From: Escherichia coli
Lineage (GTDB): Bacteria > Pseudomonadota > Gammaproteobacteria > Enterobacterales > Enterobacteriaceae
Assembly: GCF_041886205.1 (NCBI RefSeq)
Contig: NZ_CP169029.1
Reading direction: 5' to 3' (one strand)
Length of the DNA: 64,000 bases
A model generated the notes under the pieces. It had not been told where the DNA came from. It searched no databases and worked only from the letters and a program-made list of their open reading frames with translations. The stretch's first letter is position 1. The number at the start of each line of letters is the position of its first letter. Positions 13,699-51,654 of this stretch are shown here, in pieces. The position numbers were made by a program, and so were the translations under genes.

Positions 13699-14901
13699 TT
13701 ATTTATTCACAATTTGAGACATCACATAATCCGCCCATGCCTGCATCATCGGTACACGCTGCTCCAGTAGATCAGTACGATGATATGCCGCCTCAACCTT
13801 ATTTTTCAGCGTATGAGCGAGCGCCCTTTCCGCCAGATCCCGCGAATACCCCTGTTCACTACACCAGTCCCTGAATGTTGAGCGAAAACCATGTGCCGTG
13901 GCAACTCGCCCCGGAATGTCACTGACGGCTTTCTTTTTACGCAGAAAACTTGTCAACACCATATCGGAAAGGATCTGCTGCTTTCTGGGTGAAGGGAACA
14001 CCAGTTCATCATGCAGGCCACGTATATTTTCCAGAATGTAAATAGCCTGCCGGGATAAAGGAACACGATGCTGTAGCCTGGCTTTCATTCTTTCTGCAGG
14101 TATAGTCCATACCCGCTTATGAAAATCAATTTCAGCCCAGCGCATTCCCCTGGCTTCGCCCGAGCGAGTTGCTGTAAGTATCACCATTAATAACAGTGCG
14201 CGGGTAACATTATAAGGTTCATCACTATACACACTGGTCGCCACAAAAAGCGGTAACTGCCTCCAGGGCATTGCTGGTTGGTGTTCATCACGTCCTCTTG
14301 TCTGCTGAGGAAGCAAATGGTCAACCACATCAACAGGATTTGCCACACAAAAACCGTGCGCCCATCCCCACTGCATAACAACATGAATGCGCTGTTTAAC
14401 CCGGCTTGCCGTTTCTGACAAGGTTAACCAGACTGGACGCAGTGTTTCTGCCACGTCCGCAGCCGTAATCGAATCCAGCGTTTTTGCTCCCAGTTGAGGA
14501 AACGCGTAATTCTCAAGCGTCGATAACCACTGCCTTACATGCTTTGGATTTTCCCATCCTGGAGACAATTCTGCATGTACACGCCTGGCTGCATCGGCAA
14601 ATGTTGGGATAACGACTTTCTCAGATTCAGCCTTTTTAATCTCCAGAGGATCATCACCTGCAGCAAGTTGCTCTCGCATTATCCGGGCAGTACGTGCAGC
14701 TTCAGCAATACTGACCTCTGGGTAAGTTCCCAATCCAGCATTACGTCTTTTTTGTGTCACCGGACTTACATAACGAAAAACCCATTTCCCCCGCCCCTTT
14801 ACTGAAGAAGGATGAAGGGTCAGTCCGGTAATTCCCCCATGGGGCAATGGTTTGTCATCAGGTTTGATATGTCTTGCTTTCGTATCCGTCAATACTGCCA
14901 T
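13699..14901 (-). CDS. int: Tyrosine site-specific integrase, P4/CP4-57 IntA-like
   Basis: 400-aa ORF; N-terminal LTDTKARHIKP...FRYVSP arm-binding-type region and C-terminal catalytic motifs (HGFRSTFRDW, LAH, Y in EAAYHR). Confidence 0.9.
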   Translation of the reverse strand: MAVLTDTKARHIKPDDKPLPHGGITGLTLHPSSVKGRGKWVFRYVSPVTQKRRNAGLGTYPEVSIAEAARTARIMREQLAAGDDPLEIKKAESEKVVIPTFADAARRVHAELSPGWENPKHVRQWLSTLENYAFPQLGAKTLDSITAADVAETLRPVWLTLSETASRVKQRIHVVMQWGWAHGFCVANPVDVVDHLLPQQTRGRDEHQPAMPWRQLPLFVATSVYSDEPYNVTRALLLMVILTATRSGEARGMRWAEIDFHKRVWTIPAERMKARLQHRVPLSRQAIYILENIRGLHDELVFPSPRKQQILSDMVLTSFLRKKKAVSDIPGRVATAHGFRSTFRDWCSEQGYSRDLAERALAHTLKNKVEAAYHRTDLLEQRVPMMQAWADYVMSQIVNK

Positions 14902-15044
14902 ACGCTAATTCCCGTCACTCTGGTATGCCATCCAGTATGCCATTAGTCTCTCGCTTCACTAAGAATACATTAGATAATATCGGACAACAAAAAGTGTAAT
15001 ACATTGTTTATAATGAAATTATATAACACCCCTGGATTAAGTCA

Positions 15045-15525
15045 GATTTATTTCAGGCGGTCCCCCTCACCGCCATATTTAAAGAAGAGCTCGTACGAAA
15101 GTACGGGCTTTTTTTTCGTATATTGCACACACCGGGGGGATGAGAATCCCCGACCGGGGGTCGACAACTGGCGGCAGCCAGTTGGACAGACCGTGAACGC
15201 AGTGAGCGGGCTGCCCGCAGGGCGAGCGAAGCGAGTCAATCCCCCCCTCACCGCCATATTTAAAGAAGAGCTCGTACGAAAGTACGGGCTTTTTTTTTCG
15301 TATATTGCACACACCGGGGGGATGAGAATCCCCGACCGGGGGTCGACAACTGGCGACAGCCAGTTGGACAGACCGTGAACGCAGTGAGCGGGCTGCCCGC
15401 AGGGCGAGCGAAGCGAGTCAATCCCCCCCTCACCGCCATATTTAAAGAAGAGCTCGTACGAAAGTACGGGCTTTTTTTCGTGTATTGCACACACCGGGGG
15501 GATGAGAATCCCCGACCGGGATACT
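15045..15525. repeat. Tandem direct repeat array, unit about 181 bp, about 2.7 copies
   Basis: Units begin near 15061, 15241 and 15421 with near-identical sequence; each has a terminator-like hairpin plus T-run (gagctcgtacgaaagtacgggcttttttt) and hairpins GGGGAT-GAGA-ATCCCC and CAACTGGC-N4-GCCAGTTG (loop differs between copies, stem conserved). Confidence 0.9.
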
Positions 15526-15528
15526 TAG

Positions 15529-16215
15529 TTAATGCAACGGTTCACTCTTTGTCGCCGCGACTAATGGGCGAATTTTGTCACGAGTCTCCCAGACCGGAGG
15601 GATTTCCTCCAATTTAGTGACAGAAGCTCGTACAAAAGGCACTCGTGCAAGAGTCATAATCGTATCCAACCAACGGTCACGAATAATGCGATCCGCCCTT
15701 TCATGACTCGGGTCATCCAGCTCAATAACACAGACTATTTTATTGTTCTTCTTTGAAACCAGAACATAATCCATTGCCATGCCATTATAAATTGCAAAGA
15801 AACGCTTTCTTTCTTCTTCGCTAAACTCAGGTTGTTCTGGATAGTTGAGCAAGCGCCCCAGAGAGACCTGGCAATGGATATGACAATAATGTCCAAACCA
15901 TTTCTCCAGATTATCGAAATACATTTTTTCACAACGCGTGATTAACCACTCTTTTCCTTCCAATAAAATACCTTCGGCAACCATTCCCTGAAATAACTCA
16001 TCTCGTTCTTGCCAACGAGAGTCACGATAGGTTTTCTGCGGTATATAGGTCCTTGTCGACGACTTAGCAGCAGGGGAAGTTGCAGATGAAGGGACTGGTT
16101 GCGATTTAGCGATGATTACCGATGAGGCAACTTTTCGGAGTGTCAATTTTCTGGCAACAGCAAAACCGGCGACAAATGCAATTGTCAAACAAGTTACAAA
16201 AGCCATAAAGCTCAT
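15529..16215 (-). CDS. Membrane-anchored protein with DUF2726-like (nuclease-fold) C-terminal domain
   Basis: 228-aa ORF: N-terminal hydrophobic helix, Ser/Pro-rich linker, C-terminal globular domain; family call from recalled similarity only. Confidence 0.45.
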   Translation of the reverse strand: MSFMAFVTCLTIAFVAGFAVARKLTLRKVASSVIIAKSQPVPSSATSPAAKSSTRTYIPQKTYRDSRWQERDELFQGMVAEGILLEGKEWLITRCEKMYFDNLEKWFGHYCHIHCQVSLGRLLNYPEQPEFSEEERKRFFAIYNGMAMDYVLVSKKNNKIVCVIELDDPSHERADRIIRDRWLDTIMTLARVPFVRASVTKLEEIPPVWETRDKIRPLVAATKSEPLH

Positions 16216-16761
16216 AATTAATTTTCACTTATCCATGTTGATTATATTTCATTACCAATGTTACTCGCTGAAGCGTGTTACATGCCAACAATGCAACGAT
16301 CAATATATAGTTAGTATCATGTTTTGATTATTACAACCATCCCTATTTTGCCATTGCAGCTTGCCTTCCACAAAAAAAATAACAACAAACAATATTAGCC
16401 AAAGAATTAATTAAGATTAACCTTGCATTTATAATATTATCCCTAAAGAATAAATCAGAGGAATATATTCGGTGTTAATCAGTCAGTCAAATTATGGCCC
16501 ATTGTTGATTAAACCTCATAAGCAAAATTGGCACCAGATCTCCTGTACAGGTTGAATGGCCGAAAAAAGATAGGCAGATGCTCGCTTTTTTGGCTTCTGG
16601 AAGAAAAACTCTCCGCACTGGCAGTATTACACTGGTCTGATGCTATGACGAAAAATGCCTGGTAAGAGTATCTAAACCAGACTCCAGTTCAGCTTATCAA
16701 CACGCTCAAAGTCGCCCCCCTGAACGCTAACCTGAAGTTAAAGTCTTTGCTGTTAATGAAA

Positions 16762-16790
16762 TAAAACAAAGCCCGGTTCGCCCGGGCTCT
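16762..16790 (-). terminator. Intrinsic terminator downstream of phoH
   Basis: GC hairpin AGCCCGG-TTCG-CCCGGGCT followed on the minus strand by a T-rich run. Confidence 0.5.
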
Positions 16791-16805
16791 GCACCGATAA
16801 CACAC

Positions 16806-17729
16806 TTAACTGTATGCATGCAGCGTACGTTGGCAAAGTGCCGAACGTACGCAATCCTCTTTACCGAACCGGACGATCCCAACCATTTCATCTTCTTCGA
16901 AACGTTCCAGCGCGTCACTTAATCCGGAGCACACGCCGCGAGGCAAATCGCATTGCGTGATATCACCGTTGACGATAACTGTCACGTTCTCCCCGAGGCG
17001 GGTTAAAAACATTTTCATTTGCGCGGCAGTCACATTCTGCGCCTCGTCAAGAATGACGACTGCATTTTCAAAGGTACGTCCACGCATATAGGCGAAAGGC
17101 GCAATTTCCACCTTCCCTATTTCCGGTCGCAGGCAGTACTGCATAAAGGAAGCCCCTAAGCGCCGGACCAGCACGTCGTAAACCGGGCGAAAATAGGGAG
17201 CAAACTTTTCTGCGATATCTCCAGGTAAGAAGCCAAGATCTTCATCGGCTTGCAGAACTGGACGGGTGACGATAATCCTGTCGACATCCTTATGTATCAG
17301 GGCCTCTGCCGCTTTTGCTGCGCTGATCCAGGTTTTTCCGCACCCGGCTTCGCCCGTGGCGAATATCAGCTGCTTACTCTCAATAGCCTTCAGATAGTGC
17401 AATTGCGCTTCATTACGCGCGAGGATGGGCGAAGTATCGCGACTGTCGCGGGCCATACCAATGGCTTCTACGCCGCTCATTTGCACAAGCGAGGTGACCG
17501 ATTCTTCTTCACGCTGCTTATGGCTGCGCGAATCCCGTCTCAGCACACGTTTTGCCTCGCGACGAGCTTTGATCACTGCTTTTTGTCTTCCCATGGAGAG
17601 CACCTTGAGTTGTTTGTATTCATCACACGCGCCGTTGGCAGCGCGATTATGCGCACGAACATCAGAGGGTTGGCTTCCTTGTAAGCCATAGTTTGCTTTT
17701 GGATAAAATGCCGAAAAACGGCTACGCAC
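16806..17729 (-). CDS. phoH: PhoH ATPase core ORF; N-terminal extension appears frameshifted, so the full gene would span 16806..17869
   Basis: ORF with Walker A GEAGCGKT; separate upstream ORF 17573..17869 (MVTSYTGHVLDNQ...) with SD ggag overlaps it in another frame. Confidence 0.8.
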   Translation of the reverse strand: MRSRFSAFYPKANYGLQGSQPSDVRAHNRAANGACDEYKQLKVLSMGRQKAVIKARREAKRVLRRDSRSHKQREEESVTSLVQMSGVEAIGMARDSRDTSPILARNEAQLHYLKAIESKQLIFATGEAGCGKTWISAAKAAEALIHKDVDRIIVTRPVLQADEDLGFLPGDIAEKFAPYFRPVYDVLVRRLGASFMQYCLRPEIGKVEIAPFAYMRGRTFENAVVILDEAQNVTAAQMKMFLTRLGENVTVIVNGDITQCDLPRGVCSGLSDALERFEEDEMVGIVRFGKEDCVRSALCQRTLHAYS

Positions 17730-18017
17730 ACCGTTTGCGGCGTCGGTAACACGAGTAAAGAGAGGAAGTGAGAAAAATACAGAGTGACGAAGTTGCTACC
17801 GGAGGAGAAAACTCCGCGAGTGGTGGCGCGTTGATTATCTAAAACATGTCCAGTATAGGACGTTACCATCCGCGATCTCCATAGTGACTGACTATCACTG
17901 CCGGGAACTTCCGCTGCTACTTAATAAGTACAACAGATCTCGCATTTATTGCAACAATATATTTACTTATATTTAACTATAAAACACCATTTTAGTGACA
18001 TTAGTTTCTACTGGAAA

Positions 18018-18036
18018 GATGACAGAGTGATGACAG
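18018..18036 (-). promoter_or_regulatory. Pho box (PhoB site) in phoH promoter
   Basis: Reverse complement reads CTGTCATCACTCTGTCATC, two tandem CTGTCAT half-sites, about 150 nt upstream of the ATG at 17869. Confidence 0.6.
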
Positions 18037-18070
18037 TGATGAAAAAAGCTGTGTGCTTTCAGCAGGATTT

Positions 18071-18400
18071 GCATCAGGCATCAGTGCACGATCGCCGGAT
18101 GCGGCGTAAACGCCTTATCCAGCCTACCAAACCCGCACCGATTATAGGCATGATAAGACGCGCAAGCGTCGCATCAGGCATCAGTGCACGATCGCCGGAT
18201 GCGGCGTAAACGCCTTATCCAGCCTACCAAACCCGCACCGATTGTAGGCATGATAAGACGCGCAAGCGTCGCATCAGGCATCAGCGCACGAACGCCGGAT
18301 GCGGCATCAACGCCTTATCCCGCCTACCGAACCCGCACCGATTGTAGGCATGATAAGACGCGCAAGCGTCGCATCAGGCATCAGCGCACGAATGCCTTAT
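18071..18400. repeat. BIME/REP array (three units of about 110 bp containing GCCGGATGCGGCGTAAACGCCTTATCC)
   Basis: Three near-identical copies of canonical REP palindromes between phoH promoter and efeB. Confidence 0.85.
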
Positions 18401-18413
18401 TCGCCTAAAAACA

Positions 18414-19685
18414 TTAAACCCGCAATAACGCGCTTCCGAGATAATCATTCGCGTCCTTCACTCCCGGCAGCGCAAAAAAATAACCGCCGCCGATGGGTTT
18501 AACGTATTCCTCCAGCGCTTCGCCATTGAGCCTTTTTTGTACTGTCAGGAAGCCTTTTTCCAGATCGTGTTGGTAGCAGACAAACAGTAGCCCCATATCC
18601 AGTTGCCCGGAGTTGGTGACGCCCAGTGAATAACTGTAGCCACGACGCAGCATCAGGCTGGACTCACTCTCCGCCGTACGGGGATTCGCCAGCCGGATAT
18701 GGCTGTCCAGCGCGATCACCTTCCCTTCAGGGTCGCTGGCGTAATCAGGCACATCATGCTCATGCTGCATTCCCAGCGGCGCACCGGTTTGCTTATCACG
18801 GCCAAAAATCGTCTGCTGTTCTTTCAGCGGCGTTCTGTCCCAAAATTCCACTCGAAACTGAATCAAGCGTACTGCCTGATAGCTGCCACCAATTGTCCAC
18901 GCAGGCTCCTGCTGATCTGCCGTTACCCACACCACTTTTTGCATCAACTTATCATTCTGGCTATCGGGATTGGCAGTGCCGTCTTTGAAACCCAGCAAAT
19001 TAATCGGCGTCTCTTTGCCTTTACTACGCGCTGCGTGATCGGAAATAAACCCTTCCCGCTTCCAGCGCACACTGAGCAAATCCGGCGTGTGTTTGATGAT
19101 ATCGCGCAGCGCATGGATCACCGTGTCCTGGGTGTTGGCGCAAATTTGTAGCAACACATCACCATGACATAACGCCGCATCCAGCGAGTCGTTGGGGAAA
19201 CGCGTCATCTTCTGCAACTTTTTCGGCATCTGTGGCGCAAGGCCAAACCGCTCATCAAACAATGAGTGGCCCACCGATAACGTTATGGTGAGATTATCGG
19301 GCGCAATGTAGCCGCCAAGAATGCCGGAATCGAGTGGTGGCAGGCGCGGATTTGGCGTTTCTGGTGCCGCTCCGCCCTGAGTCAGAAAAGCAAAACGCTG
19401 AGTCAACAAGCGAAACAACCGTTCAAGATCGGCTTTATCGCTGGCAAGCACATCAAACGCCACCAGCATCATTGCGGCCTGTTGTGGCGTCAGGATCCCT
19501 GCCTGATGCTCACCATAAAACGGCTGTTTCTCATTGCGTGCATCCGGTGAAAGCGTGCCCGGTGCACTTTGCGTTTTTTGTGCATGAACGACCGGACAAC
19601 TTCCCGCCAGCGCCAGCGCACCAATCCCTTTCAGTAAACGTCGGCGTGACGGTTCATTCACGCCGTTTTCATCTTCATACTGCAT
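18414..19685 (-). CDS. efeB: Dye-decolorizing peroxidase EfeB (Tat-exported)
   Basis: 423-aa ORF with twin-arginine signal ([10 protein letters not shown]); conserved operon position. Confidence 0.9.
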
Positions 19686-20875: not shown

Positions 20876-21706
20876 TTACGCGGAGCGAGACGCTGTCGCC
20901 CCTGCGCGTGGTGGCAGAGCAAATGCCACCAGCGCCGGGATGAGATAAATAAACCAGACGGCGACTTCGCTGACGCTCGGCGCTTCCTGATAGCCAAAAA
21001 TCCCTTCCATCAGCGTGCCAAACAGCGAGTGAGTTGAGAGCACCGCACTCATATCGAAGGCGATTTCCTGAAAGTGGTTCCACAATCCGGCTTCATGAAA
21101 TGCGCGAATGGCACCAGCTGCCAGCCCTGCGGCGACGAAGAGAATAAACAGGCTGGTCCATTTAAAAAATGCACCAAGATTGAGGCGAATACCGCCCCAG
21201 TAGAGCAGGAAGCCTAGCACCACGGCAGTAGCAAGACCGAGCATTGCACCCAGCGGCGGCCAGATCCCGACATCTTGTTGAAATGCCGCCAGCAGGAAAA
21301 AGACCGACTCCAGCCCTTCCCTTGCAACGGCAAAAAAGACCATCATCACCAGCGCCCAGCCATGATGATTTCCACGCTGCAATGCGCTATCGACTGCCTG
21401 TTCCAGTTGCACTTTGACGTTGCGCGACACTTTGCGCATCCAGAAAACCATCCAGGTAAGGATCACCACGGCGATCACCGCCACGATACCTTCAAACAGT
21501 TCCTGTTCTTTTTGCGGAAATTCGCCGGTGGTTTCGTTAATGAAGATACCCAAGCCCAGGCACAACGCAGCGGCAAGCAACACGCCAATCCACATCACAC
21601 CAATCCATCGGCCTCGCTGGGTACGCTTAAGATAGCTGGCAATCAAACTGACAATCAGCGCGGCTTCAAGTCCTTCGCGCAACATAATGAGAAACGGAAC
21701 AAACAT
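20876..21706 (-). CDS. efeU: Ferrous iron permease EfeU (intact)
   Basis: 276-aa polytopic membrane ORF from MFVPFLIMLREGLEA...; REGLE motifs present. Confidence 0.85.
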   Translation of the reverse strand: MFVPFLIMLREGLEAALIVSLIASYLKRTQRGRWIGVMWIGVLLAAALCLGLGIFINETTGEFPQKEQELFEGIVAVIAVVILTWMVFWMRKVSRNVKVQLEQAVDSALQRGNHHGWALVMMVFFAVAREGLESVFFLLAAFQQDVGIWPPLGAMLGLATAVVLGFLLYWGGIRLNLGAFFKWTSLFILFVAAGLAAGAIRAFHEAGLWNHFQEIAFDMSAVLSTHSLFGTLMEGIFGYQEAPSVSEVAVWFIYLIPALVAFALPPRAGATASRSA

Positions 21707-50983: not shown

Positions 50984-51156
50984 GGTCAGTGCGTATTTGC
51001 AGCGCGACGTTATCAAAGGTGATCATCGTCGATTTACAAAAAATACACTTAGCGCCCAAAGGGTTTCGCTCCGTCACATCGAATGCCGATGTGCGGTACT
51101 GTGAACCATGACAACATGGACAGCGGAAATGGAGATGTTGAGTAATAATGGCAACC

Positions 51157-51369
51157 TTAGAGCGTAACAACGTTCGCTGCCGCGGGGCCACGTTGCCCCT
51201 GCTCAATAGAAAATTCAACTTTCTGATTTTCGTTCAGCGTGCGGAATTCATTGCTCTGGATGGCGGTGAAATGGACGAAAACGTCTTTGCTGCCATCATC
51301 AGGAGTGATAAAGCCAAAACCTTTATCTGCGTTAAACCATTTTACTAAACCAGTCATTTTATTAGACAT
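51157..51369 (-). CDS. cspG: Cold shock protein CspG
   Basis: 70-aa CSD protein ([21 protein letters not shown]). Confidence 0.9.
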
Positions 51370-51654
51370 ATTTTACTTCCTTCATTTTGGGCCTTTCGGC
51401 AAACAGGGCTTTAATACAGAAACTACTTAGTGTTCAGGAGAGAGACTCAAAAGAAGGGGATAATGCCTGATAATGAGAACTGCTTTAGTAAACTACTTTG
51501 TATGCTGTCTGTCTTTCAAACCGACGCAGCTATTAACGCATGATAATTGAGATTAAGCAAATTTTATTTTAGCCGTCCGGCGGTCTTAAATATCGCTGGC
51601 TTTATTTTATTAACCCCGTATAGTGCAGCGCAGTATTTTCAGTAAGGAATTTGT

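Follow-up and report, generated by a model that had tools for sequence, protein, structure and literature searches.

The DNA analysed here, called the window throughout, is a single stretch of 64,000 nucleotides from Escherichia coli (contig NZ_CP169029.1). On its minus strand the order is efeO, efeB, a short repetitive array, the phoH promoter and phoH, and the features that frame the array are the following.

16806..17594, minus strand: phoH, the downstream gene, in the 262-aa form given by the RefSeq annotation of a strain with the identical allele
18019..18036, minus strand: perfect PhoB box, CTGTCATCACTCTGTCAT, in the promoter of phoH, some 35 nt past the array
18071..18391, no strand assigned: BIME-2 tandem array, whose 100-nt unit consists of a Y REP and a Z2 REP, the first preceded by a linker of 14 nt and the second by one of 16 nt
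18414..19685, minus strand: efeB, the upstream gene, of which the array is the 3' untranslated region

Over the 1 kb that surrounds the array, the window is 100% identical to E. coli strains 6EVA and wlxctx60. The core of the Pho box, TGTCATCACTCTGTCAT, falls inside the PhoB ChIP-seq motif TGTCATCACTCTGTCATC that is given for phoH in K-12 (PMC10294691). The space from the efeB stop codon to the PhoB-dependent promoter of phoH is therefore filled by the array, on the strand that is transcribed together with efeB.

The repetition itself is simple and very regular. Tandem Repeats Finder reported a repeat at 18071-18391 with a period of 100, 3.2 copies, 96% matches and zero indels, and a separate repeat search returned three 149-nt copies spaced by exactly 100 nt. 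The window was also searched with the E. coli Y and Z2 REP consensus sequences, with 100 dinucleotide-preserving shuffles of the window as the control. Three matches were found in the array for the Y consensus (2-3 mismatches in 34 nt) and three for the Z2 consensus (2-3 mismatches in 36 nt), and there were zero matches to either in the 100 shuffled windows. The Rfam naRNA4 alignment independently gives the same two hairpins as these consensuses. A first-pass annotation, made from the letters of the sequence, had placed a REP/BIME array between phoH and efeB, and this pattern search confirms it. The same annotation had spoken of three REP units; three is the correct number of BIME-2 repeat units but not of REPs, of which there are six, three Y copies on the plus strand in strict alternation with three inverted Z2 copies on the minus strand. 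The complete and partial elements are, in order from the phoH side:

18071..18079, minus strand: 9-nt remnant of a Z2 REP, GCATCAGGC on the plus strand, at the phoH-side end, recognised by reading of the sequence, alignment with K-12 and the allele series
18094..18127, plus strand: Y REP copy 1, GCCGGATGCGGCGTAAACGCCTTATCCAGCCTAC, with 2 mismatches to the Y consensus
18144..18179, minus strand: Z2 REP copy 1, with 3 mismatches to the Z2 consensus and its foot tetranucleotide changed from GTAG to ATAG on the plus strand
18194..18227, plus strand: Y REP copy 2, a match to the Y consensus
18244..18279, minus strand: Z2 REP copy 2, a match to the Z2 consensus
18294..18327, plus strand: Y REP copy 3, with the loop variant GCATCAAC, which lacks the in-frame TAA that ends ORF1 (see below)
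18344..18379, minus strand: Z2 REP copy 3, the first complete REP hairpin past the efeB stop codon, at a distance of 34 nt
18394..18407, plus strand: 3' half of a fourth Y REP, GCCTTATTCGCCTA, left as a remnant on the efeB side, recognised by comparison with CFT073

The last of these remnants is intact elsewhere, since CFT073 has a complete Y REP where the window keeps only the 3' half; the spacer of that strain reads Y-Z2-Y, with the second Y complete. The Z2 remnant at the other end, together with the 14-nt linker that follows it, forms a direct repeat that brackets every unit. The linkers between the REPs are ATCAGYGCACGAWC (14 nt) and CRAACCCGCACCGATT (16 nt). The GTAG/CTAC foot tetranucleotide is kept in five of the six REPs, the exception being Z2 copy 1, whose 3' end reads TAT instead of TAC. 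That GTAG-to-ATAG change is the single base by which unit 1 differs from unit 2, and unit 3 differs from unit 2 at six positions. The G+C content is 59% in the array and 35% in the adjoining phoH promoter region. An inverted-repeat search of 17700-18800 returned no match because its 9-nt exact seed misses imperfect palindromes, which the consensus searches and the folds do show, and the empty result is not counted against the REPs.

BIME-2 elements are defined as Y and inverted Z2 REPs with short linkers, in tandem copies that show good conservation inside one locus and whose number differs from strain to strain (PMC3333891). The array has the Y/Z2 make-up, the inverted alternation, the GTAG/CTAC feet, imperfect palindromes, short linkers and tandem copies of variable number, and it is extragenic and belongs to a dispersed family. 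The predicted folds give interrupted hairpin stems of the form ((.(((((.(((((....))))).))))).)). With the array as query, matches are found in 5,425 of 5,426 genomes; the number of places in a genome ranges from 2 to 29, with a median of 9. Within the window, an isolated Y-like REP with 3 mismatches lies at 61150-61183 on the plus strand. The neighbouring class, BIME-1 or RIP (a REP with an IHF site), likewise pairs a Y REP with an inverted Z-type REP, but it occurs singly, with Z1 as partner and a long L motif, whereas the partner in the window is Z2, the linkers are 14 and 16 nt, and the units are in tandem. The IHF core WATCARNNNNTTR has 12 matches in the window and none within 18050-18420. 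Since Z1, the long linker and the IHF core are all missing from it, the array was rejected as a BIME-1.

The K-12 element at this locus has been catalogued as REP95 (1084683-1084768, efeB/phoH, "tandem"; supplement of bioRxiv 10.64898/2026.03.23.713779), and no repeat feature is annotated in the efeB-phoH stretch of the K-12 RefSeq record. The window and REP95 share the locus and the flanking sequence, and both have the inverted, alternating Y and Z2 REPs, short linkers, extragenic position, tandem units and strain-variable copy number of BIME-2. They differ in that the window has three units and K-12, like the great majority of complete genomes, has one. The mutated foot of one Z2 (ATAG in place of GTAG) is a second departure, both from REP95 and from BIME-2 in general; according to PMC3333891, it should abolish the binding of TnpA(REP) to Z2 copy 1.

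The closest relative that has been studied is REP325, an array of six Y/Z2 units that lies between yjdM and yjdN; one of its units is the basis of the Rfam naRNA4 model (RF02564). Two units of the window pass the gathering score of that model:

18147..18224, minus strand: naRNA4-like unit of two hairpins, Y and Z2, joined by a 14-nt linker; 81.0 bits, the gathering score being 59.5
18247..18324, minus strand: second naRNA4-like unit, 68.1 bits against the same 59.5

Both sit on the efeB-sense strand, and the alignment shows both expected hairpins; partial copies at the ends and matches on the plus strand fall below the gathering score. The two arrays thus share the order of Y hairpin, linker of about 14 nt and Z2 hairpin, and each lies between two co-oriented genes. 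They differ in that the array in the window has half as many units, other flanking genes and linkers of its own. This likeness raises the question of whether the array could be a cluster of naRNA4-type non-coding RNA genes, whose two-hairpin RNAs would act with HU to bridge cruciform DNA and condense the nucleoid, as was originally proposed for this same type of Y/Z2 unit in REP325 (PMC4550694). The two scores above threshold, on the strand co-transcribed with efeB, are what such a cluster would be expected to give. However, the Rfam match mainly marks membership of the same repeat family, and most strains have one unit at this locus and some have zero. Recent work, whose authors include Sankar Adhya, further found that deletion or over-expression of REP325 leaves nucleoid volume unchanged and that contacts between REPs are not seen in Hi-C (bioRxiv 10.64898/2026.03.23.713779). 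Because these results contradict the nucleoid-bridging role, we rank it low and consider an RNA gene cluster of this kind improbable.

The array is also crossed by open reading frames. Three overlapping ORFs with a repeated peptide had been pointed out at 17949..18502 in the first-pass annotation, all three are present, and two further repeated ORFs of 35 aa occur on the minus strand:

17949..18209, plus strand: ORF1, spurious, 86 aa from a TTG start, beginning in the AT-rich phoH promoter region and antisense to efeB-phoH transcription
18184..18408, plus strand: ORF2, spurious, 74 aa from a GTG start, wholly within the array
18299..18502, plus strand: ORF3, spurious, 67 aa from an ATG start, running antisense into the 3' end of efeB
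18074-18181 and 18174-18281, minus strand: two spurious 35-aa ORFs with ATG starts, on the transcribed strand, absent in CFT073 and O157

ORF1 to ORF3 have in common the peptide RRMRRKRLIQPTKPAPI(I/V)GMIRRASVASGISAR, and the reason is arithmetical. The period of 100 equals 3 x 33 + 1, that is, 1 mod 3, and each plus-strand ORF starts at offset 1 of its own unit. Since the period is not a multiple of 3 and every unit carries the same stop-free phase, the repeated peptide appears in three absolute frames. One phase of the GC-rich unit happens to contain no stop codon, and successive units put that phase into a new absolute frame each time, which yields three overlapping ORFs for the same arginine-rich peptide. 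The stop codon of ORF1 is the TAA in the loop of Y copy 2, and ORF2 reads through to 18408 because Y copy 3 is without that TAA.

The opposite reading, that these ORFs are real genes for small arginine-rich repeat peptides, can point to the lengths of 67-86 aa, to the ATG starts and transcribed-strand position of both 35-aa ORFs, and to the databases, where the exact sequences of two of them are deposited as hypothetical proteins (KHG96174.1 and KHH05420.1 for ORF1, PWD34478.1 for ORF2). At 90% identity, the exact-sequence cluster look-up gave 76 members for ORF1, including a UniRef entry found on 399 contigs, and 9 members for ORF2. Absence of homologues had been put forward as a way to check that the ORFs are not genes; since the databases are populated by these same miscalls, that test cannot be used and would have misled. 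The warning that automated annotation might miscall the ORFs was borne out by the same GenBank entries, although the array ORFs are not called in the RefSeq records that were checked.

Other evidence speaks against coding. None of the five ORFs has a Shine-Dalgarno-like motif of at least 4 nt in the 20 nt upstream, as the proposed ribosome-binding-site check had anticipated, and two of the three plus-strand ORFs start with TTG or GTG. No Pfam-A or NCBIfam family reaches its cut-off for any of the five. A period that is indivisible by 3 places the repetition at the level of DNA rather than of protein, and a composition such as 16 arginines in 74 aa is expected from translating a GC-rich palindrome. 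The three long ORFs are antisense to efeB-phoH transcription, and one of them overlaps efeB in antisense. Finally, the ORF boundaries shift or vanish with lineage and copy number: the length of the first ORF goes from 44 aa (CFT073) through 59 (zero-unit allele), 65 (O157) and 115 (K-12) to 119 (two-unit allele), and the remaining ORFs come and go between lineages. The earlier judgement that the ORFs are not genes stands on these grounds; the five ORFs are by-products of the repeat, and genuine peptide genes here would be very surprising. Translation of one of the sense-strand 35-aa ORFs is much less likely than the regulatory effect of copy number considered below. For annotation, the ORFs over the array should be masked, and a homology match to the GenBank or UniRef hypothetical proteins lends no support for coding.

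What the array might do depends on its transcript. The minus-strand array RNA folds at -189.7 kcal/mol, with a z-score of -7.5 against shuffles, and the single Z2 hairpin of copy 3 folds as RNA at -14.8 kcal/mol (z -5.1). Single Y REPs folded with DNA parameters do no better than shuffles (z about -0.9 to -1.0), so that the structural case is built on the Z2 hairpins, on the folds of the RNA and on the z-score of the whole array. In a terminator scan of the array, no REP hairpin had a U-tract directly after it, and intrinsic termination is therefore not expected. A Rho-independent terminator was also rejected for the only U6 run, at 18043-18048 on the minus strand, which follows a weak hairpin (-5.9 kcal/mol, z -1.0). 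This hairpin and its U6 run, GCUGAAAGCACACAGCUUUUUU at 18043-18064 on the minus strand, lie between the array and the Pho box and are conserved in all alleles examined; the fold is no better than shuffles, and the element might contribute to ending the efeB transcript. A translation-stalling mechanism has been described for REPs within 15 nt of a stop codon (the RepRanger criterion). Stalling was judged unlikely here, with the first complete REP 34 nt past the efeB stop codon and an intervening remnant that folds no better than shuffles.

From studies of other REPs, together with in vitro data on the K-12 allele, we infer that the array is likely to be a 3'-UTR insulator or stabiliser for efeUOB. 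In the proposed mechanism, the array would be transcribed as the 3' untranslated region of efeUOB, where its stable hairpins would block 3'-to-5' exonucleases and so stabilise the upstream message. The hairpins would also pause RNA polymerase and allow partial Rho-dependent termination ahead of the phoH promoter, with the outcome that the PhoB-controlled promoter starting about 35 nt past the array would be insulated. REP325 provides the closest precedent: it is a partly Rho-dependent terminator, at which transcription into yjdN is attenuated in a partly bicyclomycin-sensitive manner, and it stabilises the upstream yjdM mRNA and gives a ladder of hairpin-ended RNAs (bioRxiv 10.64898/2026.03.23.713779). 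Tandem gene pairs with REPs show upstream-biased expression (bioRxiv 10.64898/2026.03.23.713779), and REP95 itself overlaps in vitro Rho-binding regions, with and without NusG (supplement, bioRxiv 10.64898/2026.03.23.713779). The same study also holds evidence against such a role, in that REP effects depend on context, terminal REPs have no general effect on half-life, and fragments of two to four hairpins are not Rho-sensitive (bioRxiv 10.64898/2026.03.23.713779). As double-stranded DNA, the array is a probable preferred site for gyrase, by analogy with the enrichment of gyrase cleavage sites in BIME-2 elements, chiefly at Y REPs (PMC6379681); no entry for efeB, phoH or ycdB was found in the supplements of that cleavage map that were searched.

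The length of the array varies between strains in whole units. Measured as the interval between the fixed anchors AAAAAAGCTGTGTGCTTTCAGCAGG and AACATTAAACCCGC, it is 85 nt in TUM17668 (zero units), 185 in K-12 (one), 285 in LHM10-1 (two) and 385 in the window (three). The three-unit form occurs in at least 6 of 5,426 complete genomes and the two-unit form in at least 2, all of them at the top of the ranking, the lower-ranked records among the matches listed having one unit; these counts are lower bounds, as multi-unit alleles in divergent backgrounds could rank lower. In an even-step sample of 59 chromosomes, 55 have spans of one-unit size, one has a zero-unit allele and three have a different spacer. 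In two strains, PCN033 and CRECJHTL34, the spacer holds a single Y REP and an unrelated small palindrome, ATGCCCGAT...ATCGGGCAT, next to a different efeB 3' end (positions about 340-520 of the extracted stretches). The array is dispensable, as is shown by the zero-unit allele and by those lineages whose spacer is different. The region is very probably a BIME-2 array at the K-12 REP95 locus in a rare expanded allele, likely an insulator or stabiliser in a 3' untranslated region, and crossed by ORFs that are not genes. The array is of an already known kind at an already catalogued locus, and the only feature specific to the window is the rare three-unit allele.

The steps by which this allele arose can be partly read from the series. 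The array grows and shrinks by exactly 100 nt at a time, between the direct repeats on either side of each unit; such a repeat is composed of the Z2 tail and the 14-nt linker, and the zero-unit allele keeps it as a 23-nt sequence. Behind these changes may lie slippage during replication, unequal recombination, or DNA cleavage with strand transfer by the REP-associated transposase TnpA(REP). The 100-nt steps and the 23-nt repeat left in the zero-unit allele fit slippage or unequal recombination, and amplification mediated by TnpA(REP), as modelled in PMC3333891, would be an alternative. The two-unit allele is composed of unit 2 and unit 3, and units 1 and 2 differ by one base; in the last step, from two units to three, the distal unit was therefore apparently duplicated very recently.

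Variation of this kind invites the view that the repeat has no host function here, being selfish or neutral DNA in which slippage or RAYT activity makes the copy number drift. Alleles of zero, one, two and three units exist, other lineages have unrelated spacer content, the three-unit form is rare (the 6 or more of 5,426 genomes above), and the near-identity of units 1 and 2 suggests a very recent duplication, all of which speaks for this view. In vitro, BIMEs are cut and recombined by TnpA(REP), and these elements are generally known to differ in the number of tandem copies (PMC3333891). On the other hand, some REP element is present in this spacer in nearly all sampled genomes, in vitro Rho-binding regions map onto the K-12 element, and across the genome an association exists between upstream-biased expression and REPs that lie between tandem genes. 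A neutral or selfish reading is reasonable for the copy number; it is compatible with the best explanation as regards origin and differs only on whether the array has any effect at all. That the array has no function whatever we regard as possible, though the insulator or stabiliser role is the one we favour.

A bolder proposal is that the expansion from one unit to three is itself a regulatory allele, which we put forward as rather unlikely. If it were true, six hairpins in place of two would block more effectively the read-through of the iron- and acid-induced efeUOB operon into phoH, and the efeB mRNA might be more strongly stabilised. Altered local loading of gyrase could in addition change the response of the phoH promoter, whose PhoB box lies so close to the end of the array. 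The biological importance of the finding is small, as this is a textbook REP/BIME-2 array at a locus already catalogued in K-12. The series of zero-, one-, two- and three-unit alleles, together with in vitro Rho binding on the K-12 allele, nevertheless offers a convenient natural test of how hairpin number relates to termination and mRNA stability.

Several observations concern the genes around the array. The 354-aa "long" phoH ORF of K-12 (b1020) is broken in the window by a 1-nt indel inside a patch of about 40 nt (about 17754-17795) that is strongly divergent from K-12. Its N-terminal part is a separate ORF of 98 aa at 17573-17869 on the minus strand, which is a RefSeq hypothetical protein (WP_040062665.1) in strain VE-T9, and suggests that the long form of phoH is not the conserved product. 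This 98-aa hypothetical protein near the array was considered as a REP ORF and rejected, being what is left of the broken long phoH. Rfam Ysr251 (Yersinia sRNA 251, antisense class) matches 16811-17004 on the plus strand, antisense to the 3' end of phoH, with 188.5 bits against a gathering score of 100; the match may be due simply to the conserved coding sequence of phoH. A second Pho-box-like site, ATGTCATATTTCTGTCAC, with 1 mismatch, lies at 37340-37357 on the minus strand, and its distance to the phoH box is that of the PhoB ChIP-seq site upstream of agp in K-12 (PMC10294691).

In 6EVA, which has the identical allele, phoH is followed by a DUF2726 gene, tRNA-Ser and ghrA, corresponding to about 14000-16800 of the window, with the DUF2726 ORF at 15529-16215 on the minus strand. 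The pga operon, which adjoins phoH in K-12 (pgaD), is not annotated between phoH and tRNA-Ser in the 6EVA lineage. On the other side, efeU is annotated in that lineage as an intact 276-aa permease, at about 20876-21706 on the minus strand of the window as mapped from the 6EVA annotation. The K-12 efeU, in contrast, is a frameshifted pseudogene, and because efeU is annotated as intact here the efeUOB operon upstream of the array is probably functional in the lineage of the window. Farther away, an Rfam cspA-thermoregulator match of 159 bits lies at 51103-51525 on the minus strand and is presumably the leader of a cold-shock gene.
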